This document shows, piece after piece, positions 11,478 through 53,923 of a stretch of DNA of 64,000 nucleotides. Numbering within the stretch: the first letter of the stretch is position 1; every line of letters starts with the position of its first letter. The translations under genes were made by a program, and so were the position numbers. Source of the DNA: Escherichia coli (GTDB taxonomy: Bacteria > Pseudomonadota > Gammaproteobacteria > Enterobacterales > Enterobacteriaceae); the NCBI RefSeq assembly GCF_003991155.1, contig NZ_CP031293.1. One strand, given 5' to 3'. The notes below the pieces were generated by a model. That model did no database searches, had not been told where the DNA came from, and saw only the letters and a list, made by a program, of their open reading frames with translations.

Positions 11478-11620
11478 GATGCTTTCCTCATTCTTTTACT
11501 GTTGTTTTCAGCGAATTAAGAGAAAAGCATAGTTGATAATGACAGGGTTAGCCTGAGCGGACGGATTCAGTTGCAGAATCAGATAAATACTTAAGAGGCA
11601 TATTCGGTCCGGCGTTTCCT

Positions 11621-11655
11621 GCCGGATGCGGCGCGAGCGCCTTATCCGGCCTACA
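11621..11655. repeat. REP (repetitive extragenic palindromic) element
   Basis: GCCGGATGCGGCGCGAGCGCCTTATCCGGCCTACA consensus-like REP. Confidence 0.8.
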
Positions 11656-14026: not shown

Positions 14027-14221
14027 ATGGATTTTTCTTCCTCTGTTGCCCGACGAGGCAGCGAAAATGGTGCAAAAACCGTAGTTTGCCATAAGCATGA
14101 TAGAGAGAGAAAAAGAATGCTCAGTTTATTGTCTGAATTTTCAAAATATTCACTCGCTGAATTGTCATACAAGGCGCTATTCTAGTTTGTGATATTTTTT
14201 CGCCACCACAAGGAGTGGAAA

Positions 14222-15937
14222 ATGTCTTCCATGACAACAACTGATAATAAAGCCTTTTTGAATGAACTTGCCCGTCTGGTCGGTCATTCACACCTGCTCA
14301 CCGATCCCGCAAAAACGGCCCGCTATCGCAAGGGCTTCCGTTCTGGTCAGGGCGACGCGCTGGCTGTCGTTTTCCCTGGCTCACTACTGGAATTGTGGCG
14401 GGTGCTGAAAGCCTGCGTCACCGCCGACAAAATTATTCTCATGCAGGCCGCCAATACAGGTCTGACCGAAGGATCGACGCCAAACGGTAACGACTATGAT
14501 CGCGATATCGTGATCATCAGCACCCTGCGTCTCGATAAGTTGCACGTTCTCGGCAAGGGCGAACAAGTGCTGGCCTATCCGGGCACCACGCTTTATTCGC
14601 TGGAAAAAGCCCTCAAACCGCTGGGACGCGAACCGCACTCGGTGATTGGATCATCGTGTATAGGCGCATCGGTCATCGGCGGTATTTGTAACAACTCCGG
14701 CGGCTCGCTGGTGCAGCGTGGCCCGGCGTATACCGAAATGTCGTTATTCGCGCGTATAAATGAAGACGGCAAACTGACGCTGGTGAACCATCTGGGGATT
14801 GATCTGGGCGAAACGCCGGAGCAGATCCTTAGCAAGCTGGATGACGATCGCATCAAAGATGACGATGTGCGTCACGATGGCCGTCACGCCCACGATTATG
14901 ACTATGTCCACCGCGTTCGTGATATTGAAGCCGACACCCCCGCACGTTATAACGCCGATCCGGATCGGTTATTTGAATCTTCTGGTTGCGCCGGGAAGCT
15001 GGCCGTCTTTTCGGTACGTCTTGATACCTTCGAAGCGGAAAAAAATCAGCAGGTGTTTTATATCGGCACCAACCAGCCGGAAGTGCTGACCGAAATCCGC
15101 CGTCATATTCTGGCTAATTTCGAAAATTTGCCGGTTGCCGGGGAATATATGCACCGGGATATCTACGATATTGCGGAAAAATACGGCAAAGACACCTTCC
15201 TGATGATTGATAAGTTAGGCACCGACAAGATGCCGTTCTTCTTTAATCTCAAGGGACGCACCGATGCGATGCTGGAGAAAGTGAAATTCTTCCGTCCGCA
15301 TTTTACCGACCGTGCAATGCAAAAATTCGGTCACCTGTTCCCCAGCCATTTACCGCCACGCATGAAAAACTGGCGCGATAAATACGAGCATCATCTGCTG
15401 TTAAAAATGGCGGGCGATGGCGTCGGTGAAGCCAAATCGTGGCTGGTGGATTATTTCAAACAGGCCGAGGGCGATTTCTTTGTCTGTACGCCGGAGGAAG
15501 GCAGCAAAGCGTTTTTACACCGTTTCGCCGCTGCGGGCGCAGCAATTCGTTATCAGGCTGTGCATTCCGATGAAGTCGAAGACATTCTGGCGCTGGATAT
15601 CGCTCTGCGGCGTAACGACACCGAATGGTATGAGCATTTACCGCCGGAGATCGACAGCCAGCTGGTGCACAAGCTCTATTACGGCCATTTTATGTGCTAT
15701 GTCTTCCATCAGGATTACATCGTGAAAAAAGGCGTGGATGTGCACGCGCTGAAAGAACAGATGCTGGAACTGCTGCAGCAGCGTGGCGCGCAATACCCTG
15801 CCGAACATAACGTCGGTCATTTGTATAAAGCACCGGAGACGTTGCAGAAGTTTTATCGCGAGAACGATCCGACCAACAGTATGAATCCGGGGATCGGTAA
15901 AACCAGTAAGCGGAAAAACTGGCAGGAAGTGGAGTAA
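14222..15937 (+). CDS. dld: FAD-dependent D-lactate dehydrogenase Dld
   Basis: 571 aa from MSSMTTTDNKAFLNEL; recognised as Dld. Confidence 0.9.
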   Translation: MSSMTTTDNKAFLNELARLVGHSHLLTDPAKTARYRKGFRSGQGDALAVVFPGSLLELWRVLKACVTADKIILMQAANTGLTEGSTPNGNDYDRDIVIISTLRLDKLHVLGKGEQVLAYPGTTLYSLEKALKPLGREPHSVIGSSCIGASVIGGICNNSGGSLVQRGPAYTEMSLFARINEDGKLTLVNHLGIDLGETPEQILSKLDDDRIKDDDVRHDGRHAHDYDYVHRVRDIEADTPARYNADPDRLFESSGCAGKLAVFSVRLDTFEAEKNQQVFYIGTNQPEVLTEIRRHILANFENLPVAGEYMHRDIYDIAEKYGKDTFLMIDKLGTDKMPFFFNLKGRTDAMLEKVKFFRPHFTDRAMQKFGHLFPSHLPPRMKNWRDKYEHHLLLKMAGDGVGEAKSWLVDYFKQAEGDFFVCTPEEGSKAFLHRFAAAGAAIRYQAVHSDEVEDILALDIALRRNDTEWYEHLPPEIDSQLVHKLYYGHFMCYVFHQDYIVKKGVDVHALKEQMLELLQQRGAQYPAEHNVGHLYKAPETLQKFYRENDPTNSMNPGIGKTSKRKNWQEVE

Positions 15938-15942
15938 TAATT

Positions 15943-15968
15943 ACGGATGGCAGAGTATCGCCATCCGT
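15943..15968. terminator. hairpin between convergent dld and pbpG
   Basis: ACGGATGGC...GCCATCCGT 9-bp stem. Confidence 0.5.
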
Positions 15969-15975
15969 CATTCAT

Positions 15976-16908
15976 TTAATCGTTCTGTGCCGTCTGCCCC
16001 GCCGCCGCCATCTGGGCGGCTTTTTGTTTTTTATAGCTCAACGCTGCTGCCGGAACAGGCATCACTTTACCGGTCTCAATCCAGGTACGCAGGCGGCTGG
16101 CATCGGCAAAATGGGTATATTTGCCAAACGCGTCCATTACTACCAGCGCCACCGGTTTATTATTGATAACCGTACGCATCACCAGACAATGGCCCGCCGC
16201 ATTGGTAAAGCCGGTTTTGGTTAACTGAATATTCCAGTTATCGCGATACACCAGATGGTTAGTATTGCGGAACGGCAGCGTATACGTCGGGTTAGAGAAG
16301 GTTGCCATATCTTCCCGGGTGGTACTTAACTGCCCGATCAACGGATATTGTTTGCTGGCAATGAGCAGTTTGGTTAAGTCACGGGCGGTTGAAACGTTAT
16401 GCACCGACAATCCGGTCGGTTCAACAAAGCGCGTGTTGTTCATTCCGAGCGATTTCGCTTTCGCATTCATCGCCTTAATAAAGGCTTTGTAACCACCGGG
16501 ATAATGGTGCGCAAGGCTTGCCGCCGCGCGGTTTTCTGAAGACATCAGCGCCAGCAACAGCATATCTTTACGGCTGATTTCGCTGTTCAGTCGTACGCGC
16601 GAATAGACCCCTTTCATCTCCGGCGTCTGGCTGATATCCACTTTTAGTTTTTCATCCAGCGGCAGTCGTGCATCCAGCACAACCATCGCGGTCATTAATT
16701 TGCTGATAGACGCAATCGGACGCACCAGATCCGGGTGGTTCGAATAGATCACTTTGTTGGTATTCAGATCAACAATCATCGCGCTACCGGAGGCAATTTC
16801 CGGTTGTGACGCGGTGGTAGCGGCTGCCGTTTTCGCAACGGCCTGCGGTGCAAAAGGCACAGCCAGCATCAGGGCCAGGCTAAATAAAGAAACTCGAAAT
16901 TTCGGCAT
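15976..16908 (-). CDS. pbpG: D-alanyl-D-alanine endopeptidase PBP7 (PbpG)
   Basis: Signal peptide plus SISKLMT (SxxK) active-site motif; 310 aa. Confidence 0.9.
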
Positions 16909-17081
16909 GATGAGCATTCAGATAGTGGTTCACGCGCACGGGTTGCGCACCGCCGGAGTAAGGATTTACTGAGGCTAGCGACGCCATCATAACGAGCAAA
17001 AAGTGCGATCGTCAAAGAAGAATCGTGAGGAAATGCTGCATTGCTGACATTTACGCCAGCAATGCAGCGCAAAAGAACTTT

Positions 17082-17669
17082 CTAGAACAAACGATAACCG
17101 TAGCCCCATAGTATAACGGTAAGGGCGAGCAGCACTTCCAGCACCAGCACGCCTATCGCCAGTGTCGAACTGGAGAAGCTAAGTCCTTCCTCTTTGTTGA
17201 TATTCAGGAAGCTCGGAATACCGAGATACAGCAGGTAGCCGGTGTAAAACAGCGCCACCGTGCCGACCAGCGCACACAACCAGACCAGCGGGTAAAGCGC
17301 CACCAGACCGCTTAAAAACAGCGGAGTTGCAACGTAGCCCGCGAAGACCATGCAGTGCGCAAGTGACGGACGCTGCGGATAATTACGCGCCATCCACCAG
17401 ATGACCCGCCCCATCACCGCAACCCCAGCCAGCATAACGCCGTAAAACAAGACAGCCAGCGCCAGTCCGGTAAACCAGGATAACTTCAGGATAGTGCCAT
17501 CGCCAAAATTCCAGCCAATCTGTGTAGTGCCAATGAAGGCGCAAATCACCGGAATCGCCGCCATCAGCAAAACGTGGTGGGTGTAATGGTGAGAAATCGT
17601 TTCGTTTTCGCGATTAATCACCTGCATTTCACGATCGGGATGGGAAAACAGTCCCCAGACATGGCTCAT
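17082..17669 (-). CDS. yohC: inner membrane protein YohC
   Basis: 195-aa multi-TM ORF from MSHVWGLF. Confidence 0.85.
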   Translation of the reverse strand: MSHVWGLFSHPDREMQVINRENETISHHYTHHVLLMAAIPVICAFIGTTQIGWNFGDGTILKLSWFTGLALAVLFYGVMLAGVAVMGRVIWWMARNYPQRPSLAHCMVFAGYVATPLFLSGLVALYPLVWLCALVGTVALFYTGYLLYLGIPSFLNINKEEGLSFSSSTLAIGVLVLEVLLALTVILWGYGYRLF

Positions 17670-17838
17670 ACCGCCCCCTTGTTGTGAGTTCATGAACCTG
17701 ACAGTTCAAGTATAAGTCAGCTTGTGATTATTTTTTGTTCGCTCATATAATTTGCACCGTCTGATGTACGTCCTTTTTCAGCGTGAATGATTCACAGGGT
17801 GTATGCTTACAGGCAAGCAAAGGGAGACAGACTGTCCT

Positions 17839-18417
17839 ATGGATCTCAATACACTCATCTCACAATATGGTTATGCCGCGCTGGTGATCGGTAGCCTGGC
17901 GGAAGGTGAAACCGTGACTTTGCTGGGAGGCGTTGCGGCACATCAGGGGCTATTAAAGTTCCCGCTGGTGGTACTTTCTGTGGCGCTTGGCGGCATGATT
18001 GGCGACCAGGTGCTTTATCTGTGCGGGCGGCGCTTTGGCGGCAAGCTGTTACGCCGTTTCTCGAAACATCAGGATAAAATTGAGCGGGCGCAGAAACTTA
18101 TCCAACGCCATCCGTATCTGTTTGTCATTGGTACGCGTTTTATGTATGGCTTTCGGGTGATTGGCCCGACGCTGATTGGTGCCAGCCAGCTGTCGCCGAA
18201 AATCTTTCTGCCGCTGAATATTCTCGGCGCATTTGCCTGGGCGCTGATTTTTACCACTATCGGTTACGCTGGTGGGCAGGTGATTGCGCCGTGGTTGCAC
18301 AATCTCGACCAGCATTTGAAGCACTGGGTCTGGTTGATTCTGGTCGTGGTTCTGGTGGTAGGCGTGCGCTGGTGGCTGAAACGGCGCGGGAAGAAAAAGC
18401 CGGATCATCAGGCGTAA
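17839..18417 (+). CDS. yohD: DedA-family inner membrane protein YohD
   Basis: 192 aa from MDLNTLISQYGYAALVIG. Confidence 0.85.
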   Translation: MDLNTLISQYGYAALVIGSLAEGETVTLLGGVAAHQGLLKFPLVVLSVALGGMIGDQVLYLCGRRFGGKLLRRFSKHQDKIERAQKLIQRHPYLFVIGTRFMYGFRVIGPTLIGASQLSPKIFLPLNILGAFAWALIFTTIGYAGGQVIAPWLHNLDQHLKHWVWLILVVVLVVGVRWWLKRRGKKKPDHQA

Positions 18418-18424
18418 AACCATT

Positions 18425-18506
18425 GCCCTGGATAAGGTGTTCGCGCCGCATCCGACATCCGGTGCACCATGCCTGATGCGACGCTGGCGTGTCTTATCTG
18501 GCCTAA
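18425..18506. repeat. pair of inverted REP units (BIME-like)
   Basis: Two REP-like palindromes in opposite orientation between yohD and yohF. Confidence 0.7.
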
Positions 18507-18536
18507 CCCAATGAAATAACCACGCACCTCACTGCG

Positions 18537-19298
18537 CTATTCTGGGTTGAACTGCGGATTCGCCAACATAAAGCCGCCATCCACTATCAACGACCGCCCG
18601 GTGGTGTAATTTGCGCCCTCCGAACAAAGCCATACCACCAGACTGGCAATCTCATGCGTTGTGCCAAAACGTCGCAAGGGAATCGAAGGCTCCGCGTCGG
18701 GCTTCACATCGCCGTCATCCATGCCGTTCATTGGCGTGGCGATCGCCCCAGGTGCGACTGCGTTCACCAAAATTTTATGCCTGACCAGCTCCAGCGCCAT
18801 TGCTTTGGTTAACCCGCCGAGCGCATGTTTAGCGGCTGTGTAGGCGCTGGCATCCGGCAGCGGCGTATGTTCATGTACCGATGTAATGTTGATGATGCGA
18901 CCGCCCTGCCCTTGCTTCACCATCTGGCGGGCAGCAATTTGCGAGCATAAAAATGCACCATCGACATCAACGGTAAAAATCTTGCGCCACTCATCGAAAG
19001 CCATATCAAGAAACGGCGCTTTGGTCATTGCGCCCGCATTATTCACCAGCACATCAATACGCCCCAGCCGATGAATAAGTTTCTCCAGCGCCAGTGCCCC
19101 TTCTGGTAGATTGCCGAGATCCAGTTGCACGATCTCCGCACGTACGCCGTGGCTAACTACCTCACGCGCGGTATCTTTTGCCCCTTCTTCATCTGAGTGC
19201 CAGGTAATGCCAATATCAAACCCCTGCTGCGCCAGTAATAACGCGCACTCTTTGCCGATCCCCGAATCGGAGGCGGTAATTATCGCGACCTGTGCCAT
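18537..19298 (-). CDS. yohF: short-chain dehydrogenase/reductase YohF
   Basis: SDR N-terminus AIITASDSGIGKE; 253 aa. Confidence 0.85.
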   Translation of the reverse strand: MAQVAIITASDSGIGKECALLLAQQGFDIGITWHSDEEGAKDTAREVVSHGVRAEIVQLDLGNLPEGALALEKLIHRLGRIDVLVNNAGAMTKAPFLDMAFDEWRKIFTVDVDGAFLCSQIAARQMVKQGQGGRIINITSVHEHTPLPDASAYTAAKHALGGLTKAMALELVRHKILVNAVAPGAIATPMNGMDDGDVKPDAEPSIPLRRFGTTHEIASLVVWLCSEGANYTTGRSLIVDGGFMLANPQFNPE

Positions 19299-19350
19299 CG
19301 AGTTCTCCACTTAACGCTGAATAAATGTTAAGTATAGAAGGCGCATATCA

Positions 19351-20787
19351 TCAGCGTTTGTAACCTCCGCCCAGCGCACCGGTGAGTTGAATGGAGGCAT
19401 CCAGCCACTGCCCTTGCAATAACAGGCCATTGGCCCGCTCACGCAGCGCGGGGATTCTGGCTTCGCTGACGCGGGAACCAGCAATGATGCCCGCGTTAAA
19501 GCGCGCCTGCGCAAGACCTACCACACGCAAGGCATCGTGCTCAATTTGCGCCTGATGCTGGTTTTTCTCCGCCAGTGTCTGAACCTGGCTGGCCGCCCGC
19601 GCCACGTCATTTACCGCTTCAACCACCGCTTTGTTGTAGCTGGCGATAGACAAGTTGCTTTCGGCTTTTGCGATATCGAGATTGGCGTTAAGACGACCAC
19701 TATCGAAAATGGGTAGCGTCAGGCCTGCCGTAACGCCCATTTGCTGCGCGGAATGACGGAACAGATCGCTTAAGTGCAACGCATCCTGTTGCAGAAAGGC
19801 CATCAGGTTGATGTCAGGATAAAATGCCGCTTTTGCCGCATCAATAGTGCTTAACGATGACTCAACGTACCAGTGCGCCGCCTGCAAATCTGCCCGCCGG
19901 GCCAGTAAGGAGTACCCGAGTTCATCAGGAAGCTGACTTGCCACTTTCGGCAACGCGACCGGTTTAAGCTTCAATGACTTTGTCTGGTGGTTGGTGAGCG
20001 CACTTAACCGTGCCTCAATAATTTTCATTTTCCCCGCGACATCGTTGAGCTGCTGCCGGGTTTTGCTGGCATTAATATCGGTTTCCACACCTTCAACTGA
20101 AGAAGTAATCCCGTTCTGATATAGCTGGCGATCGGTCGCGATAATGGTGTTCTGCTCTTTTTCGATTTGCTGCAAGACCGTGTTTAACGCCGCCTGGGTT
20201 TGCCACTCCCAGTACAGGCGGGCTACGCTGCCAGCCAGCAATTGGCAGGTTTGCTCGCGTTCCGCCGCCCGTGCTTTAACCGTACCGAGGCGAGCAGTAA
20301 CCTCCGCCCGATTCTTTCCCCAGATATCGAGATGCCAGCCCGCCGTTAAGCCAAAAGTACCGTTGGTGTACCACGGACCGGTCGTACCTGCGGCAGGATC
20401 GTTCAGAGCAAACGGCCCCATTAACCCTTCTGCAGACATTTTTTGCCGCTCCATATCCGCAGAAAAGTCGATCTGCGGACCATCCTGAGTGGCAACTGCC
20501 TTCGCCTGGGCTTCAGCCAGCTGAATGCGCTGTTCAGCCACCTGCATATCCGGTGCGTTCTGTAGTGCATTGTTAATTAATGAAGTGAGTTGATTATCGT
20601 GATACTCCAGCCACCATTGGCTGTCTGGCCAACCATTTTTCAGCGCCGTGGGTAATGCGGTGTCAACTTGTGCCGCGGGTGTTTGCTGGCTTAACGCCTG
20701 GCGGGTTTCATGCATAGGCGCACACCCGGCCAGCATCAGTAACAGCGGAAAACAGGCGATGGCTGGATAAAAAGAATCACGATTCAT
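19351..20787 (-). CDS. mdtQ: outer-membrane efflux lipoprotein MdtQ (YohG), apparently intact
   Basis: Single 478-aa ORF from MNRDSFYPAIACFPLLLMLAGC (lipobox); OMF/TolC-like. Confidence 0.8.
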   Translation of the reverse strand: MNRDSFYPAIACFPLLLMLAGCAPMHETRQALSQQTPAAQVDTALPTALKNGWPDSQWWLEYHDNQLTSLINNALQNAPDMQVAEQRIQLAEAQAKAVATQDGPQIDFSADMERQKMSAEGLMGPFALNDPAAGTTGPWYTNGTFGLTAGWHLDIWGKNRAEVTARLGTVKARAAEREQTCQLLAGSVARLYWEWQTQAALNTVLQQIEKEQNTIIATDRQLYQNGITSSVEGVETDINASKTRQQLNDVAGKMKIIEARLSALTNHQTKSLKLKPVALPKVASQLPDELGYSLLARRADLQAAHWYVESSLSTIDAAKAAFYPDINLMAFLQQDALHLSDLFRHSAQQMGVTAGLTLPIFDSGRLNANLDIAKAESNLSIASYNKAVVEAVNDVARAASQVQTLAEKNQHQAQIEHDALRVVGLAQARFNAGIIAGSRVSEARIPALRERANGLLLQGQWLDASIQLTGALGGGYKR

Positions 20788-21010
20788 GGGGGAATAATCA
20801 GGTAAGAAAAGGTGCGCGGAGATTACCGTGTGTTGCGATATATTTTTTAGTTTCGCGTGGCAATACATCAGTAGCAATAAAACGACATATCCAGAAAAAT
20901 ATACACTAAGTGAATGATATCTTCCGATTTATCTTAATCGTTTATGGATAACGGCAAAGGGCTTCGTTTTTTCCTATACTTATTCAGCACTCACAAATAA
21001 AGGAACGCCA

Positions 21011-21094
21011 ATGAAAATTATACTCTGGGCTGTATTGATTATTTTCCTGATTGGGCTACTGGTGGTGACTGGCGTATTTAAGATGATATTTTAA
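21011..21094 (+). CDS. yohP: small membrane protein YohP (27 aa)
   Basis: Not in ORF track; ATG at 21011, encodes MKIILWAVLIIFLIGLLVVTGVFKMIF. Confidence 0.75.
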   Translation: MKIILWAVLIIFLIGLLVVTGVFKMIF

Positions 21095-21595
21095 AATTAA
21101 TTAATGTCATCAGGTCCGAAAATAACGAGAATAGTTCAGTCTCTCATCCTGTTGCGCTCCTGTCATGTGCATTGCTTCATATCATCACTGGCGCAAGGAG
21201 CGCGCAGGGGGCGGCCAGTCGCCGTCGCCCCCTGCACCCCCGGGCTCTGGCGAACAAAATCGCCGCTGCGCGGTACCCTCGGCTTATCCCTTGCTGCTAC
21301 CGGGTCGGGCGCGAGGTAACATATATGGACGCTCCCGGAATGCAATGCTTTCTTCAGTTATGTAATAAAACGGGTAGGTGCAGCCATATATCCGGTTTCT
21401 GATGGGATTTTTATCCCGAACCATGATGAAATCCGCCAGGCAGGTACCAATCATCCTCTACGGGCTAACTTGCCCTTGTTACCTCTCGGTGTATCCTGCC
21501 TGCGGTCTTACCTGTTTTGCCATCTTCTGAAGTCACCTGCACCTCCCAGGACGTTAACTTTTTTTCAGCACCTCGTCAGATTGACTGACCTTGTG

Positions 21596-22560
21596 TCAGG
21601 CGAGCTGCCGAGGTTGATATTCAGTATTGTGTGACAACATTGACCACATGATCCTCGCTGTTTTTGCCGCCATGGCGACAACAGCTACATTGTAGTGCTT
21701 CCGCTCAAGGAGTCCCTGAAGCCAGGAATTCTCCTCAACCGCGCCGTTTCGGTTGACCCAGGCGGTAAGTGCGCGTGCGCCGTGAACCAGCAGGTATCGG
21801 AAATATCCATCTCCACGTTTGCTGATCCCTCCCAGTTGCTGTTTCCCGCCGCTGGAATGTTCCTTTGGTGTCAGCCCCAGCCATGAAGCGAACTGCTTTG
21901 CGGTACTGAATTGTCGGGCATTACCCACTGCTGCTACCACATAAGTGGCCGTTAGCATGCCAACCCCCGGGATCTTGGCCATTCTCTGGCAGGCTTCCTG
22001 CGTTCTATACCAGGAGGCCAGAGCTTCTTCTACCTGTTTAACTTGTTCTTCAAGTTCCCGGATATGTTTAGACTGTCTGTAGATGCTGGTTCTGACAAAG
22101 GGAGATAAACCATTTTCGCCATCCTCCAGAATGGCTGGCAGCTCACGTGTTAAATGGCTTTGTCCGGCCGCAATCGTAATACCAAACTCAGCAAGTGTGG
22201 CTCTTAAACTATTGGCACAGGCAATCCGCTCACGGATAAGTATTCCCCGTTCAGTGTGTAACGCTAAAACGGCCTGCTGCTCTTCGGTTTTTATCTGAAC
22301 AAAACGCATATTCGGACGGGTTACCGCTTCGCAGATTGCTTCAGCATCTGCTGCATCCGTCTTGTTCGTTTTCACATAAGGCTTCACATACTGCGGAGGT
22401 ATGAGTTTTACCTCATGACCATAGCGGGTGAATAATCGCGCAAAATAATGACTGGATGAGCAGGCTTCCATGCCAATCAGACAAGGTTCCAGTTGAATCA
22501 CAAACTGAACAAACTTAGCCCGGGTGAGCTTTTTACGCAAAATAGTATGGCCTTCATGAT
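21596..22560 (-). pseudogene. IS110-family transposase, C-terminal ~320 codons (gene split by IS3 insertion)
   Basis: Matches IS1111/IS5075-type transposases (LIGMEACSSSHYF, VKTNKTDAADAEAICEA, LGGISKRGDGYFR). The first 16 residues of the ORF-track entry are read from the IS3 left inverted repeat and are artefactual. Confidence 0.8.
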
Positions 22561-23810
<1,250 letters not shown>

Positions 23811-23818
23811 CCACTACA

Positions 23819-23882
23819 GATCGACACCATGAAGCTGAAAAACGTTCTTTGCCAGGTCGATACCAAGAGTTGATACTTTCAT
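23819..23882 (-). pseudogene. IS110-family transposase, N-terminal 21 codons
   Basis: Minus-strand translation gives MKVSTLGIDLAKNVFQLHGVD, which joins in frame to HEGHTILRKK... once the IS3 and one GAT copy are removed. Confidence 0.75.
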
Positions 23883-24221
23883 GTGGACGCTCCTAATTTT
23901 TCAGGACGTATTGCAACGATCCAGTCTGGTACTTTGATACCGTAAAATCTGGAGCGTCCATCTCATTATCCCTGTAAAACGCGCCCTCAGCCCACATCCA
24001 TGTGGGCTGCCCCGCCCTTCAGGGAACGCCTCGGCGATTTTGACGCCACCAACACCGGTGCGGTTTGTAATTAAAGCGCAAGAACATCTTTAAATGAAAA
24101 CGAATACTCTACTGCTCCTTATGCATAACATTTCCTTTTAATTGCAACTTTACTCGTCCTTCCGCTTTCAGTAGTGTGTCATCGCGCATTTCGACTTCAT
24201 CTTTGCAAGGACTGGGTTTTC

Positions 24222-25121
24222 ATGTTTTCTGGGCTGTTAATCATTCTGGTTCCCCTGATTGTGGGTTACCTCATTCCGCTTCGCCAAAAAGCTGCATTAA
24301 GAGTTATTAATCAGCTATTAAGCTGGATGGTTTACCTTATTCTCTTTTTTATGGGTATCAGTCTGGCGTTTCTCGATAACCTCGCCAGTAACCTGTTGGC
24401 GATTCTGCATTATTCTGCTGTCAGTATTACCGTTATTTTACTGTGTAATATTGCCGCCCTGATGTGGCTGGAGCGCGGCCTGCCATGGCGCAACCACCAT
24501 CATCAAGAAAAACTCCCGTCGCGTATTGCGATGGCGCTGGAGTCGCTAAAACTGTGCGGCGTAGTAGTGATTGGTTTTGCCATTGGCCTGAGTGGACTGG
24601 CTTTCTTACAACATGCGACCGAAGCCAGTGAATACACCTTAATTCTGCTACTTTTCCTCGTCGGTATTCAGTTGCGCAATAATGGCATGACCTTAAAGCA
24701 GATTGTCCTTAATCGCCGGGGAATGATTGTCGCCGTGGTGGTGGTTGCCAGTTCATTAATTGGTGGTTTAATTAACGCCTTTATTCTTGATCTTCCCATC
24801 AATACCGCGCTGGCAATGGCCTCCGGTTTCGGCTGGTATTCTCTTTCCGGTATTTTATTGACCGAATCTTTTGGTCCGGTAATCGGGAGCGCGGCGTTTT
24901 TTAATGATCTGGCCCGTGAGCTGATTGCTATTATGTTGATCCCTGGGCTGATTCGCCGTAGCCGCTCGACTGCACTGGGCTTATGTGGTGCGACGTCGAT
25001 GGATTTCACCCTGCCCGTTCTTCAACGTACTGGCGGGCTGGATATGGTCCCGGCGGCGATTGTTCACGGTTTTATTCTTAGCCTGTTAGTGCCGATCCTC
25101 ATCGCCTTTTTCTCTGCATAA
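24222..25121 (+). CDS. lysO: lysine exporter LysO (YbjE)
   Basis: 299-aa membrane protein from MFSGLLIILVPLIVGYLIPL. Confidence 0.85.
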   Translation: MFSGLLIILVPLIVGYLIPLRQKAALRVINQLLSWMVYLILFFMGISLAFLDNLASNLLAILHYSAVSITVILLCNIAALMWLERGLPWRNHHHQEKLPSRIAMALESLKLCGVVVIGFAIGLSGLAFLQHATEASEYTLILLLFLVGIQLRNNGMTLKQIVLNRRGMIVAVVVVASSLIGGLINAFILDLPINTALAMASGFGWYSLSGILLTESFGPVIGSAAFFNDLARELIAIMLIPGLIRRSRSTALGLCGATSMDFTLPVLQRTGGLDMVPAAIVHGFILSLLVPILIAFFSA

Positions 25122-25154
25122 TACCTCTCTGGCGGTAGATCCCTGCCGCCAAAA

Positions 25155-25168
25155 TTGCGCTAAATCAA
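25155..25168. promoter_or_regulatory. FNR-like binding site upstream of hcp
   Basis: TTGCGCTAAATCAA resembles TTGAT-N4-ATCAA; an AT-rich palindrome-like NsrR-type sequence follows at ~25229-25250. Confidence 0.4.
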
Positions 25169-25264
25169 TCTCCCCTAAAGTTGCATTAAAAATCTCTTTT
25201 ATCCCCGCGTTAAGCGTCTTAACCTTAAACATGTATATTAAATATAACTTTAAAAGGTGTGATC

Positions 25265-26917
25265 ATGTTTTGTGTGCAATGTGAACAAACTATCCGTACT
25301 CCGGCAGGAAACGGCTGCTCATACGCGCAGGGGATGTGTGGTAAAACGGCGGAAACCTCTGACCTTCAGGATTTACTCATCGCGACGCTGCAAGGGCTTT
25401 CGGCCTGGGCAGTGAAAGCACGTGAATACGGCATCATCAACCACGATGTAGACAGCTTTGCGCCACGTGCCTTTTTCTCAACCCTGACCAACGTTAACTT
25501 CGATTCTCCGCGTATTGTCGGCTACGCTCGTGAAGCGATTGCCCTGCGCGAGGCGCTGAAAGCACAGTGCCTGGCTGTAGATGCCAACGCCCGCGTCGAT
25601 AACCCGATGGCTGACCTGCAACTGGTGAGTGACGATCTCGGCGAGCTGCAACGTCAGGCGGCGGAATTTACTCCCAATAAAGATAAAGCTGCGATTGGCG
25701 AAAACATTCTCGGCCTGCGTCTGCTGTGCCTGTATGGCCTGAAAGGTGCGGCGGCCTATATGGAACACGCACACGTTCTCGGTCAATACGACAACGATAT
25801 TTATGCCCAGTACCATAAAATCATGGCGTGGCTGGGGACCTGGCCTGCCGATATGAACGCGCTTCTTGAGTGTTCAATGGAAATCGGCCAGATGAACTTC
25901 AAAGTGATGAGCATTCTGGATGCAGGCGAAACCAGTAAATACGGTCACCCGACGCCAACCCAGGTCAACGTCAAAGCGACGGCAGGTAAATGCATTCTGA
26001 TTTCCGGTCACGATCTCAAAGATCTCTACAACCTGCTGGAACAGACCGAAGGCACGGGCGTTAATGTCTACACCCACGGTGAAATGCTGCCTGCGCATGG
26101 CTACCCGGAGCTGCGTAAATTCAAGCATCTGGTCGGTAACTACGGCAGCGGCTGGCAGAATCAGCAAGTGGAGTTCGCTCGTTTCCCTGGCCCCATCGTG
26201 ATGACCTCGAACTGCATCATCGACCCAACCGTAGGCGCTTATGACGATCGTATCTGGACCCGCAGCATCGTTGGCTGGCCGGGTGTGCGTCATCTGGATG
26301 GCGAAGATTTCTCTGCGGTCATCGCCCAGGCGCAACAGATGGCGGGCTTCCCGTACAGCGAAATTCCGCACCTGATCACCGTGGGCTTTGGTCGCCAGAC
26401 ACTGCTTGGCGCAGCCGATATGCTGATTGATCTGGTGAGCCGTGAAAAACTGCGTCATATCTTCCTGCTTGGCGGCTGTGACGGCGCACGCGGCGAGCGT
26501 CACTACTTCACCGATTTCGCCACCAGCGTGCCGGATGACTGCCTGATCCTGACCCTCGCTTGCGGTAAATATCGCTTTAATAAACTTGAGTTTGGCGATA
26601 TCGAAGGTCTGCCGCGTCTGGTAGATGCTGGTCAGTGTAACGATGCTTACTCAGCAATTATTCTGGCGGTAACGCTGGCAGAGAAACTGGGCTGCGGAGT
26701 CAACGATCTGCCGCTGTCGCTGGTGCTCTCCTGGTTTGAACAGAAAGCGATTGTCATTCTGCTGACGCTGCTTTCTCTGGGTGTGAAAAATATCGTCACC
26801 GGCCCGACTGCACCTGGTTTCCTGACACCAGACCTGCTGGCGGTGCTGAACGAGAAATTCGGCCTGCGTTCTATCACCACTGTTGAAGAAGACATGAAGC
26901 AACTGTTGAGCGCGTAA
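25265..26917 (+). CDS. hcp: hybrid-cluster protein / hydroxylamine reductase Hcp
   Basis: N-terminal Cys cluster MFCVQCEQT...GNGCSY...MCGK; 550 aa. Confidence 0.92.
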
Positions 26918-26928
26918 GGAGTTTGTCG

Positions 26929-27897
26929 ATGACGATGCCAACGAATCAATGCCCGTGGCGGATGCAGGTTCATCACATTACGCAAGAAACGCCGGATGTG
27001 TGGACGATTTCCCTGATTTGCCACGATTACTACCCATATCGCGCCGGGCAATATGCACTGGTCAGCGTGCGTAACTCAGCGGAAACGCTGCGTGCTTACA
27101 CCATTTCCTCCACGCCAGGCGTGAGTGAATACATTACCCTGACTGTGCGGCGGATTGATGACGGTGTCGGCTCCCAGTGGCTGACGCGCGATGTAAAACG
27201 CGGTGATTATCTCTGGCTTTCGGACGCGATGGGGGAATTTACCTGCGACGATAAAGCAGAAGATAAATTCCTGTTGCTGGCGGCAGGCTGCGGCGTTACG
27301 CCGATTATGTCGATGCGTCGCTGGCTGGCGAAGAACCGTCCACAGGCCGATGTGCAGGTGATCTACAACGTGCGTACGCCGCAGGATGTGATTTTCGCCG
27401 ATGAGTGGCGTAACTATCCGGTAACGCTGGTGGCGGAAAATAACGTTACCGAAGGCTTTATCGCTGGTCGTCTCACTCGCGAACTGCTGGCAGGTGTCCC
27501 TGATTTAGCCTCACGTACCGTGATGACCTGTGGCCCTGCTCCATATATGGATTGGGTAGAGCAGGAAGTGAAAGCGCTCGGCGTGACGCGTTTCTTTAAA
27601 GAGAAATTCTTCACCCCAGTAGCGGAAGCGGCGACCAGCGGTCTGAAATTCACCAAACTGCAACCGGCACGAGAATTTTACGCCCCGGTTGGCACCACGC
27701 TACTGGAGGCGCTGGAAAGCAATAACGTTCCGGTTGTCGCCGCCTGCCGTGCAGGTGTTTGCGGCTGCTGTAAGACAAAAGTGGTTTCCGGTGAATATAC
27801 GGTGAGCAGCACAATGACGCTGACCGACGCCGAAATCGCTGAAGGTTACGTGCTGGCCTGCTCCTGCCATCCGCAGGGAGATTTGGTTCTCGCATAA
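26929..27897 (+). CDS. hcr: NADH oxidoreductase Hcr (FAD plus 2Fe-2S)
   Basis: C-terminal ferredoxin motif CRAGVCGCCKTKV; 322 aa; 12 bp after hcp. Confidence 0.9.
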   Translation: MTMPTNQCPWRMQVHHITQETPDVWTISLICHDYYPYRAGQYALVSVRNSAETLRAYTISSTPGVSEYITLTVRRIDDGVGSQWLTRDVKRGDYLWLSDAMGEFTCDDKAEDKFLLLAAGCGVTPIMSMRRWLAKNRPQADVQVIYNVRTPQDVIFADEWRNYPVTLVAENNVTEGFIAGRLTRELLAGVPDLASRTVMTCGPAPYMDWVEQEVKALGVTRFFKEKFFTPVAEAATSGLKFTKLQPAREFYAPVGTTLLEALESNNVPVVAACRAGVCGCCKTKVVSGEYTVSSTMTLTDAEIAEGYVLACSCHPQGDLVLA

Positions 27898-28029
27898 TCG
27901 CCTGATGCCCGATGATATTCCTTTCATCGGGCTATTTAACCGTTAGTGCCTCCTTTTTCTCCCATCCCTTCCCCCTCCGTCAGATGAACTAAACTTGTTA
28001 CCGTTATCACATTCAGGAGATGGAGAACC

Positions 28030-29748
28030 ATGAAACAAACGGTTGCAGCTTATATCGCCAAAACACTCGAATCGGCAGGCGTGAAACGCATCTGGGGAGT
28101 CACGGGCGACTCTCTGAACGGTCTTAGTGACAGTCTTAATCGCATGGGCACCATCGAGTGGATGTCCACCCGCCATGAAGAAGTAGCGGCGTTTGCCGCT
28201 GGCGCTGAAGCACAACTTTCAGGAGAACTGGCGGTCTGTGCCGGATCGTGCGGCCCCGGCAACCTGCACTTAATCAACGGCCTGTTCGATTGCCACCGCA
28301 ATCACGTTCCGGTACTGGCGATTGCCGCTCATATTCCCTCCAGCGAAATTGGCAGCGGCTATTTCCAGGAAACCCACCCACAAGAGCTATTCCGCGAATG
28401 TAGTCACTATTGCGAGCTGGTTTCCAGCCCGGAGCAAATCCCACAAGTGCTGGCGATTGCCATGCGCAAAGCAGTGCTAAACCGTGGCGTTTCCGTTGTC
28501 GTGTTACCGGGCGACGTGGCGTTAAAACCTGCACCAGAAGGGGCAACTACCCACTGGTATCATGCGCCACAGCCAGTCGTGACGCCGGAAGAAGAAGAGT
28601 TACGCAAACTGGCGCAACTGCTGCGTTACTCCAGCAATATCGCCCTGATGTGCGGCAGTGGCTGCGCGGGGGCGCATAAAGAGTTAGTTGAGTTTGCCGG
28701 GAAAATTAAAGCGCCTATTGTTCATGCCCTGCGCGGTAAAGAGCATGTCGAATACGATAACCCGTATGATGTCGGAATGACGGGATTAATCGGCTTCTCG
28801 TCAGGTTTCCATACCATGATGAATGCCGATACGTTAGTGCTGCTCGGCACGCAATTTCCCTACCGCGCGTTCTACCCGACCGATGCCAAAATTATTCAGA
28901 TTGATATCAACCCAGCCAGCATCGGCGCGCATAGCAAGGTAGATATGGCGCTGGTCGGCGATATCAAATCAACCCTGCGGGCATTGCTGCCACTGGTGGA
29001 AGAAAAAACCGATCGCAAGTTTCTGGATAAAGCGCTGGAAGATTACCGCGACGCCCGCAAAGGGCTGGATGATTTAGCTAAACCGAGCGAGAAAGCCATT
29101 CACCCGCAATATCTGGCGCAGCAAATTAGTCATTTTGCCGCCGATGACGCCATCTTTACCTGTGACGTTGGTACGCCAACGGTGTGGGCGGCACGTTATC
29201 TGAAAATGAACGGCAAGCGTCGTCTGTTAGGTTCGTTTAACCACGGTTCGATGGCTAACGCCATGCCGCAGGCGCTGGGTGCGCAGGCAACCGAGCCGGA
29301 ACGTCAGGTGGTCGCCATGTGCGGCGATGGCGGTTTCAGTATGTTGATGGGCGATTTCCTCTCAGTAATGCAGATGAAATTGCCAGTGAAAATTATCGTC
29401 TTTAATAACAGCGTGCTGGGCTTTGTGGCGATGGAGATGAAAGCCGGAGGCTACCTGACAGACGGTACTGAGCTGCACGACACCAACTTTGCCCGCATTG
29501 CCGAAGCGTGCGGAATTACGGGTATTCGCGTGGAAAAAGCCTCTGAAGTCGATGAAGCCCTGCAACGCGCCTTTTCCATCGACGGTCCGGTGTTGGTGGA
29601 TGTGGTAGTAGCCAAAGAAGAGTTAGCCATTCCACCGCAGATCAAACTTGAACAGGCCAAAGGATTTAGCTTGTATATGTTGCGCGCAATCATCAGCGGA
29701 CGCGGTGATGAAGTGATCGAACTGGCGAAAACGAACTGGCTAAGGTAA
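28030..29748 (+). CDS. poxB: pyruvate oxidase (ubiquinone-dependent) PoxB
   Basis: 572-aa TPP enzyme, [30 protein letters not shown]. Confidence 0.92.
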
Positions 29749-29784
29749 AAAGGGTGGCATTTCCCGTCATAATAAGGACATGCC

Positions 29785-30786
29785 ATGATTGATTTACGCA
29801 GTGATACCGTTACCCGACCGAGCCGCGCCATGCTCGAAGCGATGATGGCCGCCCCGGTTGGGGACGACGTTTACGGAGACGACCCTACCGTTAATGCTCT
29901 GCAGGACTATGCAGCAGAGCTTTCCGGTAAAGAAGCCGCCATTTTTCTGCCGACCGGCACCCAGGCTAACCTGGTCGCTCTGCTCAGTCACTGCGAACGC
30001 GGCGAAGAGTATATTGTCGGTCAGGCCGCACACAACTATCTGTTTGAAGCCGGTGGCGCAGCGGTGCTGGGCAGTATTCAACCGCAACCCATCGACGCGG
30101 CTGCCGACGGCACGCTACCGCTGGATAAAGTGGCGATGAAAATCAAACCCGACGATATCCATTTCGCCCGCACCAAATTACTCAGTCTGGAAAACACTCA
30201 CAACGGCAAAGTGCTGCCGCGTGAATACCTCAAAGAAGCATGGGAATTTACCCGCGAGCGCAATCTGGCGCTGCATGTGGACGGTGCGCGCATCTTTAAT
30301 GCTGTGGTGGCTTACGGCTGCGAACTGAAAGAGATCACACAATATTGTGATTCGTTCACCATTTGCCTGTCGAAAGGTCTTGGGACGCCAGTCGGTTCAT
30401 TACTCGTCGGTAATCGTGATTACATTAAACGTGCCATTCGCTGGCGGAAAATGACAGGTGGCGGGATGCGCCAGTCCGGCATTCTGGCTGCCGCCGGAAT
30501 ATATGCCCTGAAAAATAACGTTGCGCGCTTGCAGGAAGACCACGACAACGCTGCCTGGATGGCGGAGCAGCTGCGTGAAGCAGGCGCGGATGTGATGCGT
30601 CAGGACACCAATATGCTGTTTGTTCGCGTCGGGGAAGAAAATGCTGCCGCGTTAGGCGAATACATGAAAGCGAGAAACGTGCTGATTAACGCCTCGCCGA
30701 TTGTCCGCCTGGTGACGCATCTTGACGTCTCGCGCGCTCAGCTGGCGGAAGTCGCCGCCCACTGGCGCGCATTCCTGGCGCGTTAA
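29785..30786 (+). CDS. ltaE: low-specificity L-threonine aldolase LtaE
   Basis: 333 aa, PLP-aldolase family. Confidence 0.9.
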
Positions 30787-30796
30787 GGAGGGAGAC

Positions 30797-32227
30797 GTGC
30801 CGCAACGCATTTTAGTTCTCGGTGCCAGTGGCTACATTGGTCAGCATCTGGTGCGAACACTCAGCCAGCAGGGGCATCAGATCCTGGCGGCGGCACGTCA
30901 TGTCGACAGGCTTGCAAAGCTGCAACTGGCAAATGTCAGTTGCCATAAAGTCGATCTCAGCTGGCCGGATAACCTTCCGGCCCTGTTGCAGGATATCGAT
31001 ACGGTCTATTTTCTGGTGCACAGCATGGGCGAAGGCGGCGATTTTATCGCTCAGGAGCGCCAGGTGGCTCTCAACGTCCGCGATGCGCTACGTGAAGTCC
31101 CAGTTAAGCAATTAATCTTTCTCAGTTCGTTGCAGGCCCCGCCACATGAGCAGTCGGACCATCTGCGCGCCCGTCAGGCTACGGCGGATATTCTTCGTGA
31201 AGCGGGTGTCCCGGTGACCGAATTGCGTGCCGGAATAATCGTTGGTGCAGGTTCAGCGGCGTTCGAAGTCATGCGCGATATGGTCTACAACCTGCCAGTG
31301 TTAACGCCGCCACGCTGGGTTCGTTCACGCACCACGCCCATCGCGCTGGAAAACTTGCTGCACTATCTGGTGGCGCTGTTAGATCATCCGGCCAGCGAAC
31401 ATCGCATCTTCGAAGCCGCCGGACCAGAAGTGCTCAGTTATCAGCAACAGTTTGAACATTTTATGGCGGTGAGCGGTAAGCGCCGCTGGTTGATCCCCAT
31501 CCCCTTTCCGACCCGCTGGATTTCGGTGTGGTTTCTCAATGTGATTACTTCCGTACCGCCCACCACCGCCAAAGCGTTGATTCAGGGGCTGAAACACGAT
31601 CTGCTGGCAGATGACACCGCGTTACGTGCACTCATCCCACAACGGCTGATTGCTTTCGATGACGCGGTACGTCGCACCCTGAAAGAGGAAGAAAAGCTGG
31701 TCAACTCCAGCGACTGGGGATACGACGCTCAGGCCTTTGCCCGCTGGCGACCGGAGTACGGTTATTTCGCCAAACAGGCGGGGTTTACCGTTAAAACGTC
31801 CGCCAGCCTTGCGGCTTTATGGCAGGTGGTGAATCAAATCGGCGGTAGAGAGCGTTATTTCTTTGGTAATATTTTGTGGCAGACCCGGGCGCTGATGGAC
31901 CGCGCGATCGGTCATAAGCTGGCAAAAGGCCGCCCGGAGCGTGAATATTTGCAGACCGGAGATGCGGTGGATAGCTGGAAAGTGATTGTCGTTGAACCGC
32001 AAAAAAAACTTACGCTGTTATTTGGCATGAAAGCGCCGGGGCTGGGACGACTGTGTTTTACCCTGGAAGATAAAGGTGACTATCGTACTATCGATGTTCG
32101 CGCATTCTGGCATCCGCACGGTATGCCAGGGTTGTTTTACTGGTTATTGATGATCCCCGCGCATCTGTTTATTTTTCGCGGAATGGCAAAACGAATCGCC
32201 AGACTGGCAGAACAAAGCACAGATTAA
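30797..32227 (+). CDS. ybjT: NAD(P)-binding epimerase/dehydratase-family protein YbjT
   Basis: GTG start preceded by AAGGAGGGAG; Rossmann motif [13 protein letters not shown]; 476 aa. Confidence 0.8.
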
Positions 32228-34486: not shown

Positions 34487-34696
34487 GATCGATCTCCTTG
34501 TTTGTTAAGCCTTCGATCTCTAAAGCATTATCGGACTGATATGCCATGTTGGGAAGAAGGTTTTGATCAGTTTAGGAAATCATCTCATTGTGTCAAAAGC
34601 AGGTACATAAGCCTGTACAATTATCTGTTTCGTAACCGGATATTGGTTTTATTATGGAGCACCGCTTACCTGTCGTATTATGTAGTACCAGCAACA

Positions 34697-51526: not shown

Positions 51527-53212
51527 GTGAATATAAACGTCGCCGAATTGTTAAATGGGAATTACATTCTGTTATTATTTGTGGTCCTCGCGCTTGGGCT
51601 ATGTCTCGGGAAATTACGACTTGGTTCGATCCAACTGGGTAATTCCATTGGCGTTTTAGTCGTATCGCTGTTATTAGGCCAACAACATTTCAGCATTAAC
51701 ACCGACGCGCTTAATCTTGGCTTTATGCTGTTTATTTTCTGCGTCGGGGTCGAAGCCGGACCGAACTTTTTTTCCATTTTTTTTCGCGATGGGAAAAATT
51801 ACCTAATGTTAGCACTGGTGATGGTTGGCAGTGCGCTGGTCATCGCCTTAGGGTTAGGTAAGCTGTTTGGCTGGGATATTGGCCTGACGGCCGGTATGTT
51901 AGCAGGCTCTATGACGTCAACACCGGTTTTGGTCGGTGCTGGCGATACACTGCGTCATTCCGGCATGGAAAGCAGGCAGCTCTCACTGGCACTGGATAAT
52001 CTGAGCCTCGGGTATGCCTTAACCTATTTAATCGGTCTGGTGAGTTTGATTGTTGGTGCGCGTTACTTGCCGAAATTGCAGCATCAGGACTTACAGACCA
52101 GCGCCCAGCAAATCGCCCGCGAACGTGGCCTGGACACAGATGCCAACCGTAAGGTTTATTTGCCGGTGATCCGCGCCTACCGCGTCGGCCCGGAGCTGGT
52201 GGCCTGGACCGACGGCAAAAATCTGCGTGAACTGGGTATTTATCGACAAACTGGCTGTTACATTGAACGTATTCGGCGTAACGGGATTCTGGCAAATCCA
52301 GACGGTGATGCCGTACTACAAATGGGCGATGAAATAGCGTTGGTAGGCTATCCCGACGCCCACGCCCGACTCGATCCCAGTTTCCGTAATGGCAAAGAAG
52401 TTTTCGATCGTGACCTTCTCGACATGCGTATCGTCACTGAAGAAGTGGTCGTTAAAAACCATAACGCTGTAGGCAAACGTCTCGCACAACTGAAGTTGAC
52501 CGATCACGGTTGCTTCCTTAACCGCGTCATTCGTAGCCAGATTGAGATGCCGATTGATGACAACGTTGTGCTTAACAAAGGTGACGTTTTACAAGTCAGC
52601 GGCGATGCCCGCCGCGTAAAAACCATCGCCGATCGCATCGGCTTTATCTCGATTCACAGCCAGGTCACTGACTTGCTGGCATTCTGCGCCTTCTTTGTGA
52701 TTGGGCTAATGATCGGGATGATCACCTTCCAGTTCAGCACATTCAGTTTCGGCATGGGGAACGCTGCCGGGTTGTTATTCGCCGGAATTATGCTGGGCTT
52801 TATGCGTGCTAACCACCCGACCTTCGGTTACATTCCGCAAGGTGCATTAAGCATGGTGAAAGAGTTCGGCTTGATGGTGTTTATGGCAGGCGTTGGTCTG
52901 AGCGCCGGTAGCGGTATTAATAACGGCCTGGGCGCGATTGGCGGTCAAATGTTGATTGCCGGATTGATTGTCAGTCTGGTGCCAGTGGTTATCTGCTTCT
53001 TGTTCGGTGCTTATGTATTGCGAATGAACCGCGCACTGTTGTTCGGCGCAATGATGGGCGCACGCACCTGCGCGCCGGCAATGGAGATCATCAGTGATAC
53101 AGCTCGCAGTAATATCCCGGCGCTGGGCTATGCGGGCACTTACGCAATCGCCAACGTCCTGCTGACGCTAGCAGGGACAATCATCGTCATGGTATGGCCA
53201 GGATTAGGATAA
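51527..53212 (+). CDS. ybjL: putative transport protein YbjL (AAE-family membrane domains flanking TrkA-C/RCK_C domains)
   Basis: 561 aa, GTG start; two membrane halves with central soluble region. Confidence 0.85.
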
Positions 53213-53253
53213 AACTGAAGTTGCCCTGAAAATGAAATTTTTTTGCACAACCG

Positions 53254-53288
53254 CAGAACTTTTCCGCAGGGCATCAGTCTTAATTAGT
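53254..53288 (+). promoter_or_regulatory. sigma-E-type promoter of rybB
   Basis: GAACTT (-35) then ~16 bp then TCTTA (-10) immediately upstream of the RybB 5' end. Confidence 0.6.
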
Positions 53289-53367
53289 GCCACTGCTTTT
53301 CTTTGATGTCCCCATTTTGTGGAGCCCATCAACCCCGCCATTTCGGTTCAAGGTTGGTGGGTTTTTT
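53289..53367 (+). ncRNA. rybB: RybB small RNA (sigma-E-dependent, Hfq-binding)
   Basis: Recognised as RybB: GCCACTGCTTTTCTTTGATGTCCCC...GGTTCAAGGTTGGTGGGTTTTTT, ending in terminator hairpin plus U-run; lies in ybjL-rcdA intergenic region as in K-12. Confidence 0.85.
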
Positions 53368-53386
53368 GTTGTCTAAAATTTATCTA

Positions 53387-53923
53387 CTACCCTGCAACCC
53401 TCTCAACCATCCTCAAAATCTCCTCGCGCGATAGCGGCTTACGGTCGGTGACAAAATGCAGCGTCATCCCCTCAATAAACGCATCAAGCGCGCGGGCGGT
53501 TCCGGGTTCAAACCATTGTTCGAGCGTTTGCTGACTGCGCTGCATCCAGTTTTGCATTACCGTTTTTAATAGCGGTTTTCGGCTAGCCAGCGCGTAGAGC
53601 TGGTACATCAGCTCCATGTTATCCGGCGTTGCAACCTGTGAGCTGTAGATCATATCGGTGATAGCCTGGCATGCGCCCGGAGCATCACTAACATCGCTAA
53701 AAAATGCCTGATATTGCCGGGACATGATCTCAGTAAAACGGCTGAACGCCTCCAGCAACAACTCATCAATTCCTGAAAAATAGTAAGTCATCGATCCCAA
53801 CGGTACCCCGGCAAGGGTAGCAATTTTGCGGTGTGTAACAGCATGTATTCCATAAAGTTTCACCGCCTCCAGCGTGGCCTGGATAATTTTTTCTCGCCGT
53901 TGCGGATCGTTAGCGCGACGCAT
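53387..53923 (-). CDS. rcdA: TetR-family transcriptional regulator RcdA (YbjK)
   Basis: 178 aa from [21 protein letters not shown] (TetR HTH). Confidence 0.85.

Follow-up and report, generated by a model that had tools for sequence, protein, structure and literature searches.

The rybB locus between ybjL and rcdA in an Escherichia coli genome: promoter, terminator and an unoccupied P2-like prophage attachment site

RybB, among the best-studied enterobacterial sRNAs, is one of three sigma-E-dependent, Hfq-binding sRNAs (PMC4102768, PMC1804206), the remaining two being MicA and MicL, which repress abundant outer-membrane proteins by Hfq-dependent base pairing (PMC4102768). RybB and MicA jointly target 31 mRNAs, among them the major porin mRNAs, in a negative feedback loop on sigma-E, and both Hfq binding and omp mRNA repression are established for the K-12 and Salmonella RybB RNAs (PMC4102768, PMC1804206). 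The native seed of RybB corresponds to its 5' 16 nt (PMC11402225). In both E. coli and Salmonella, the published location of the gene is the ybjK/rcdA-ybjL intergenic region, where near-perfect matches to the sigma-E consensus (-35 GGAACTTTT, -10 GTCAAA) lie 5' of rybB and where rybB promoter-gfp fusions drop to near background in a delta-rpoE strain (Papenfort et al., PMC1804206); sigma-E dependence of transcription has been published for the K-12 and Salmonella rybB promoters alike (PMC1804206, PMC4102768). The locus is also an already known attachment site, listed as defence-island hotspot #29 and occupied only by Felsduovirus prophages (Hochhauser et al., PMC10121019). Three such prophages, Rybb*W, Rybb*B and Rybb*Cr, have been named, with retron Ec86 located in Rybb*B (Archer et al., PMC3032704).

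Here we examine the rybB region of a 64-kb stretch of E. coli DNA (hereafter referred to as the window). The first-pass annotation of this DNA had placed a 79-nt RybB sequence on the plus strand, and had named an Rfam search and an alignment to the K-12 locus as the ways to check it. A search of the whole window with Rfam 15 returned a full-length match to RF00110 (RybB; model positions 1-79) at 53292-53370 (+), scoring 104.1 bits (E = 2.5e-20; gathering score 40); the start of the Rfam model lies 3 nt inside the RybB RNA. Alignment to K-12 b4417 yielded 78/79 identity over 79 nt, that is, a 1-nt difference within RybB, with an identical promoter: the 99 nt preceding the gene, which extend back into the last part of ybjL, match K-12 at every position (100%). 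Both analyses thus bear out the 79-nt RybB assignment. The plus strand of 53254-53367 reads cAGAACTTTTCCGCAGGGCATCAGTCTTAATTAGT and then GCCACTGCTTTTCTTTGATGTCCCCATTTTGTGGAGCCCATCAACCCCGCCATTTCGGTTCAAGGTTGGTGGGTTTTTT; the end coordinate proposed in the first pass coincides exactly with the annotated 3' end of the RNA, and its start lies 1 nt upstream of the -35 element. The sequence is therefore almost certainly an ordinary E. coli rybB, intact and in its canonical context, and constitutes a normal allele of an already known gene, a finding that matters little beyond annotation. The coordinates of all features discussed here are collected in Table 1.

Table 1. Features of the rybB locus and further RNA matches; positions refer to the window unless an accession is given.
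Feature	Position	Strand	Basis or remark
rybB, 79-nt RybB sRNA	53289..53367	+	RF00110 and alignment to K-12 b4417
K-12 MG1655 rybB (b4417)	NC_000913.3 887979..888057	-	Between rcdA (b0846) and ybjL (b0847)
A/T-rich tract GAAAATGAAATTTTTTT, -61 to -45	53228..53244	+	Read from sequence
Sigma-E -35 element AGAACTTTT	53255..53263	+	8/9 against consensus GGAACTTTT
Sigma-E -10 element GTCTTA	53277..53282	+	4/6 against consensus GTCAAA; same in K-12
+1 G	53289	+	6 nt past the -10 element
5' seed / target-recognition domain GCCACUGCUUUUCUUU	53289..53304	+	Identical to K-12
Rho-independent terminator, Hfq-binding 3' module	53323..53367	+	Rfam consensus structure, MFE fold, covariation
Single difference from K-12 in the RNA (G here, A in K-12)	53357	+	Alignment
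attB core of P2-like (Felsduovirus) prophages, unoccupied	53357..53383		BL21(DE3) direct repeat
ybjL (aspartate:alanine antiporter family transporter)	51527..53212	+	ORF list; RefSeq annotation of 100%-identical NZ_CP029747.1
rcdA (TetR-family regulator), convergent, downstream	53387..53923	-	RefSeq annotation of identical record; K-12 annotation
isrC-model match (RF01387)	22629-22751	+	Rfam, 145 bits, above gathering threshold
Peptidase-S11 RNA motif (RF03039), cis-regulatory leader	16913-16993	-	Rfam, 72.8 bits, above gathering threshold
naRNA4 (RF02564), sub-threshold	18426-18503	+	52 bits; gathering score 59.5
naRNA4 (RF02564), sub-threshold	40694-40763	-	38 bits; gathering score 59.5
naRNA4 (RF02564), sub-threshold	11614-11651	-	33 bits; gathering score 59.5

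The neighbours of rybB in the window are those found in K-12, as had been claimed, with the gene starting 76 nt past the ybjL stop codon and ending 19 nt ahead of the rcdA stop codon. The orientation proposed for the ybj block also stands, the block being reverse-complemented with respect to K-12 numbering, and rybB anchors both its identity and its orientation. Over its whole length, the window shows 100% identity with E. coli 2016C-3878 (NZ_CP029747.1, 1315044-1379043, reverse complement), as well as with several further complete genomes. In the 120-locus comparative set described below, almost all loci from Enterobacteriaceae, Yersinia and Serratia have a YbjL homologue that ends ~75-100 nt 5' of rybB. 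Within the species, a 117-nt query encompassing the promoter and the gene is present in 5418 of the 5426 complete E. coli genomes at a coverage of at least 80%, with 5254 of the matching records at least 99% identical to the query. The remaining 8 genomes have no rybB match, genome AR_0017 harbors only a 91.5% copy, 7 of the matches reside on plasmids, and the query matches in up to 3 places per genome. The RefSeq/PGAP records identical to the window carry no feature over rybB, which is annotated only in curated K-12. This is an annotation gap and not evidence of absence, and it illustrates that automated annotation would overlook the gene.

The first-pass annotation had further described a promoter of the sigma-E type, and such a promoter is indeed present, with AGAACTTTT and GTCTTA at the correct distance from +1 and an invariant core. 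The spacer from GAACTT to TCTTA measures 16 nt, and the pattern RGAACTT-N16-TCNNA matches a single time in the 64 kb, at 53255-53282, against 0.16 matches expected from shuffles. By itself this count is weak evidence, because 15 of 100 shuffled sequences also contain at least one match. For comparison, we assembled a set of rybB loci by means of an exact-pattern scan with one genome per species, yielding 120 loci that span Escherichia, Salmonella, Klebsiella, Enterobacter, Kluyvera, Serratia, Yersinia, Xenorhabdus, Providencia, Sodalis and other genera. The alignment comprises 116 Enterobacterales loci and uses an exact 25-mer of the seed as its anchor, so that the invariance of nt 3-27 arises by construction; promoter and terminator statistics are unaffected by this anchoring. 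GAACTTT, GTC..A and the T-G at -1/+1 show no variation across the 116 loci, in contrast to the spacer, whose sequence is free to vary. It is this invariance, combined with a position 6 nt upstream of the mapped +1, that makes the predicted promoter convincing. Further upstream, an A/T-rich run occurs at the same position as the window tract in 117/117 loci inspected, and on sequence grounds this tract appears to be UP-element-like.

The proximity of ybjL raises the alternative that most RybB derives from the 3' part of ybjL transcripts, through read-through and processing, instead of from its own promoter. The two genes share a strand, ybjL lies 76 nt 5' of rybB here and upstream of it in most species, and a terminator scan allowing loops of 3-8 nt detected no intrinsic terminator between the ybjL stop (53212) and rybB. 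However, the sigma-E motif is invariant in 116 species and precisely spaced relative to the mapped +1, the rybB loci of Xenorhabdus, Providencia and Sodalis keep the promoter although ybjL was not detected on the stretch inspected, and in a delta-rpoE strain the published promoter-gfp fusions retain little more than background activity (PMC1804206). We hence regard production mainly from ybjL transcripts as extremely improbable, and transcription from the sigma-E-type promoter as the preferred reading.

At the other end of the gene, the Rho-independent terminator consists of a 12-bp stem (53323-53334 with 53352-53363) enclosing a 17-nt loop, followed by a six-U tract (53362-53367), the first two Us of which close the terminator stem. 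The terminator hairpin given by the Rfam model is also present in the minimum free energy (MFE) fold of RybB, which has an energy of -24.6 kcal/mol (z = -2.2 relative to shuffled sequences). Across the 116 loci, 98.5% of the cells in the terminator helix are paired, and 6 of the 12 terminator pairs display compensatory double changes (e.g. U-A replacing C-G in 56 rows, and G-C replacing A-U in 48-50 rows). The observed terminator covariation score was not reached by any of 500 shuffles, and sliding the 3' partners by 1-3 columns, as a control, reduced pairing to 22-50%. A simple terminator scanner reported no site in 53000-53600, because it allowed loops of 3-8 nt and the RybB loop spans 17 nt; with the hairpin backed by fold, Rfam structure and covariation, we rejected this miss as evidence against the terminator. 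A further helix in the MFE fold, pairing CCAC (nt 2-5) with GUGG (nt 31-34), would occlude part of the seed; it was dropped, since no covariation supports it and 45 of the 116 loci break its A-U pair. The lack of support for this helix fits a 5' seed that would be single-stranded.

The one nucleotide by which the RNA differs from K-12 falls within the terminator stem, where G53357 turns a U-A pair into U-G. The predicted fold is consequently less stable, at -24.6 kcal/mol for the window G allele versus -25.2 kcal/mol for the K-12 A allele, a cost of 0.6 kcal/mol, and one could argue from this stem substitution that the allele impairs termination or Hfq binding, leaving rybB present but functionally weakened. 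We deem this highly unlikely. U-G is a standard wobble pair and appears at this position in 4 of the 116 aligned rows (the window's own row included); seed, promoter and U-tail are unaltered; and the allele is frequent in E. coli, with ~4 of 30 evenly spaced records, or ~1 in 7, being 100% identical to it over promoter and gene. Over the 301 nt around rybB, 1314 E. coli records are at least 99% identical to the window. G53357 is therefore best read as a common polymorphism that is probably neutral.

The seed was compared with two K-12 target mRNAs. Within it, GCCACUGC is perfectly complementary to GCAGUGGC in K-12 ompC, at about -49..-42, and complementary to CAGUGGC in K-12 ompW, at about +13..+19. 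The predicted seed-ompC duplex has an energy of -17.4 kcal/mol, matched or bettered by 4 of 500 shuffled seeds (it beats 99%), and the seed-ompW duplex -15.5 kcal/mol, with 17 of 500 shuffled seeds as good (it beats 97%). What the window supports directly is the identity of the sequence, its promoter motif, synteny, the complementarity of the seed, and a structure backed by covariation. That this allele also depends on sigma-E, binds Hfq and represses its targets would be expected by analogy with the published work on the K-12 and Salmonella RNAs. On that basis, the accumulation of unfolded outer-membrane proteins would activate sigma-E, and the sigma-E holoenzyme would start transcription at G53289 from the AGAACTTTT-(spacer)-GTCTTA promoter. 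The intrinsic terminator would end transcription to give a 79-nt RNA whose terminator hairpin and U-tail would be bound by Hfq, and whose single-stranded 5' 16 nt, GCCACUGCUUUUCUUU, would pair with omp mRNAs (ompC, ompW and others). Such pairing would block translation and hasten mRNA decay, so that fewer porins would reach the envelope, with negative feedback on sigma-E.

The 3' end of rybB overlaps the attB core used by P2-like prophages, which is composed of the last 11 nt of the gene and 16 nt downstream. An imperfect 27-bp direct repeat, ATGGGTTTTTTGTTnnCTnAAAnTTAT, is common to both prophage junctions of BL21(DE3), and the window contains one copy of it. A 301-nt query around rybB is contiguous in 4226 of 5422 matching E. 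coli genomes; in the other ~1200 (~22%), BL21(DE3) included, the match breaks at window position ~53383 and resumes elsewhere. In BL21(DE3), rybB and rcdA are separated by a defective P2-like prophage of ~20.7 kb, with genes for an integrase, a CI repressor, a retron St85-family/Ec86 reverse transcriptase, portal, terminase and tail proteins, and Ogr. The genes ogr and D, together with tail genes, were found at the rybB junction in all 3 interrupted genomes sampled (BL21(DE3) and two others), and Ogr-like genes also occur 160-320 nt 3' of rybB in Serratia, Raoultella and other genera. Upon integration, the phage copy of the att site regenerates the 3' end of rybB. The window holds an empty copy of a common integration site for P2-like prophages and defence islands, which is useful for strain comparison.

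Conservation extends past the terminator. The sequence GTTGCCTGAA(A/T)T, which immediately follows the U-tract of RybB (window 53368-53383), recurs from Escherichia to Yersinia and Serratia (loci L007, L052, L009, L039, L061 and others of the comparative set), and is also present in the prophage-free loci of E. albertii and E. whittamii, where rcdA lies at +101. The motif consensus is GTTGCCTGAAAT (~12 nt), from which the sequences of the window (GTTGTCTAAAAT) and of K-12 (GTTATCTAAAAC) have diverged. The likeliest reason for this conservation beyond the terminator is the phage att core. It is conceivable, though in our estimation quite unlikely, that these ~12 nt could be more than a passive att core, being maintained by repeated integration and excision of P2-like phages or affecting rybB termination or 3' end formation; if so, the three mismatches of the window core to the phage-side copy, at 53357, 53372 and 53375, could lower lysogenisation at this site in the window lineage. 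We also considered whether GTTGCCCTGAAAAT (53220-53233), upstream of rybB and resembling the downstream att motif, could be a second att copy, and dropped this candidate, given its occurrence in only 2 other Escherichia loci among 117; the repeat search likewise did not report it as an upstream att-like copy.

The first-pass annotation had considered rybB the only RNA gene identifiable in the window. This holds for trans-acting sRNA genes, and it is in agreement with curated K-12 annotation, in which rybB is the sole ncRNA between rimO and lysO; it does not hold for Rfam matches at large, since isrC-model and Peptidase-S11 matches are present too. The Rfam scan found neither MicA nor MicL within the 64-kb window, and ARAGORN found no tRNA or tmRNA in it. 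The isrC-model match begins 4 nt ahead of the coding sequence of an IS3-family (ISEc31-like) transposase (22633-23810) and covers its 5' end, and we rejected it as a second sRNA gene. Read from the transposase start, the matched stretch would encode protein, and it is unrelated to K-12 isrC (b4435, upstream of flu), with which it does not align. Rfam matches to the isrC family can hence mark IS3 elements instead of sRNA genes. The Peptidase-S11 leader lies directly upstream of pbpG (D-alanyl-D-alanine endopeptidase; 15976-16908, minus strand). Relaxing the Rfam scan to E <= 0.1 adds only sub-threshold matches, three to naRNA4 and one to PyrR208, an archaeal snoRNA family. The naRNA4 matches score below the gathering score and were not counted as genes; they resemble what we take to be REP-type intergenic repeats.

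The IS3 element that carries the isrC-model match is located at a rearrangement junction (window 21100-24220), in which a block from K-12 ~2.2 Mb meets a reversed one from K-12 ~0.914 Mb. The former (yehP...yohP) makes up window positions 1-21094 and is joined to lysO-hcp-poxB..., whereas in K-12 it is aqpZ that adjoins lysO. The join is occupied by the gene of an IS110-family transposase (21596-22609, minus strand) and by the ISEc31-like IS3 element (22633-23810, plus strand). Positions 12000-32000 are contiguous in only 85 genomes, and the junction itself is found in only 32. On either side of the junction, GC skew is predominantly negative. This single junction suggests an IS-mediated inversion across the terminus with replichore polarity preserved. 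Elsewhere in the window, ~2.6 kb (34487-37113) separate ybjQ from ybjP, compared to ~125 bp in K-12. This stretch is a strain-variable insertion containing a truncated pentapeptide-repeat protein pseudogene (35261-36499), and G+C is low (0.46) for 32-40 kb.

Set against the described systems, the window locus is closest to that of K-12, with which it shares the 79-nt length of RybB, the promoter region, the 16-nt 5' seed, the terminator architecture and the ybjL-rybB-rcdA context. It differs from K-12 in G53357, which replaces A, and in substitutions at 53371 and 53379, just 3' of the gene. MicA and MicL have a common regulatory logic with RybB, based on a sigma-E promoter and Hfq-mediated pairing, but their sequences, loci and target sets are unrelated to it. 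With respect to Rybb*B of E. coli B/BL21(DE3), the window contains the same 27-bp core overlapping the rybB 3' end, with mismatches to the BL21 phage-side copy at the three core positions given above; in contrast to BL21(DE3), the site is empty here, and rcdA follows 19 nt after rybB.
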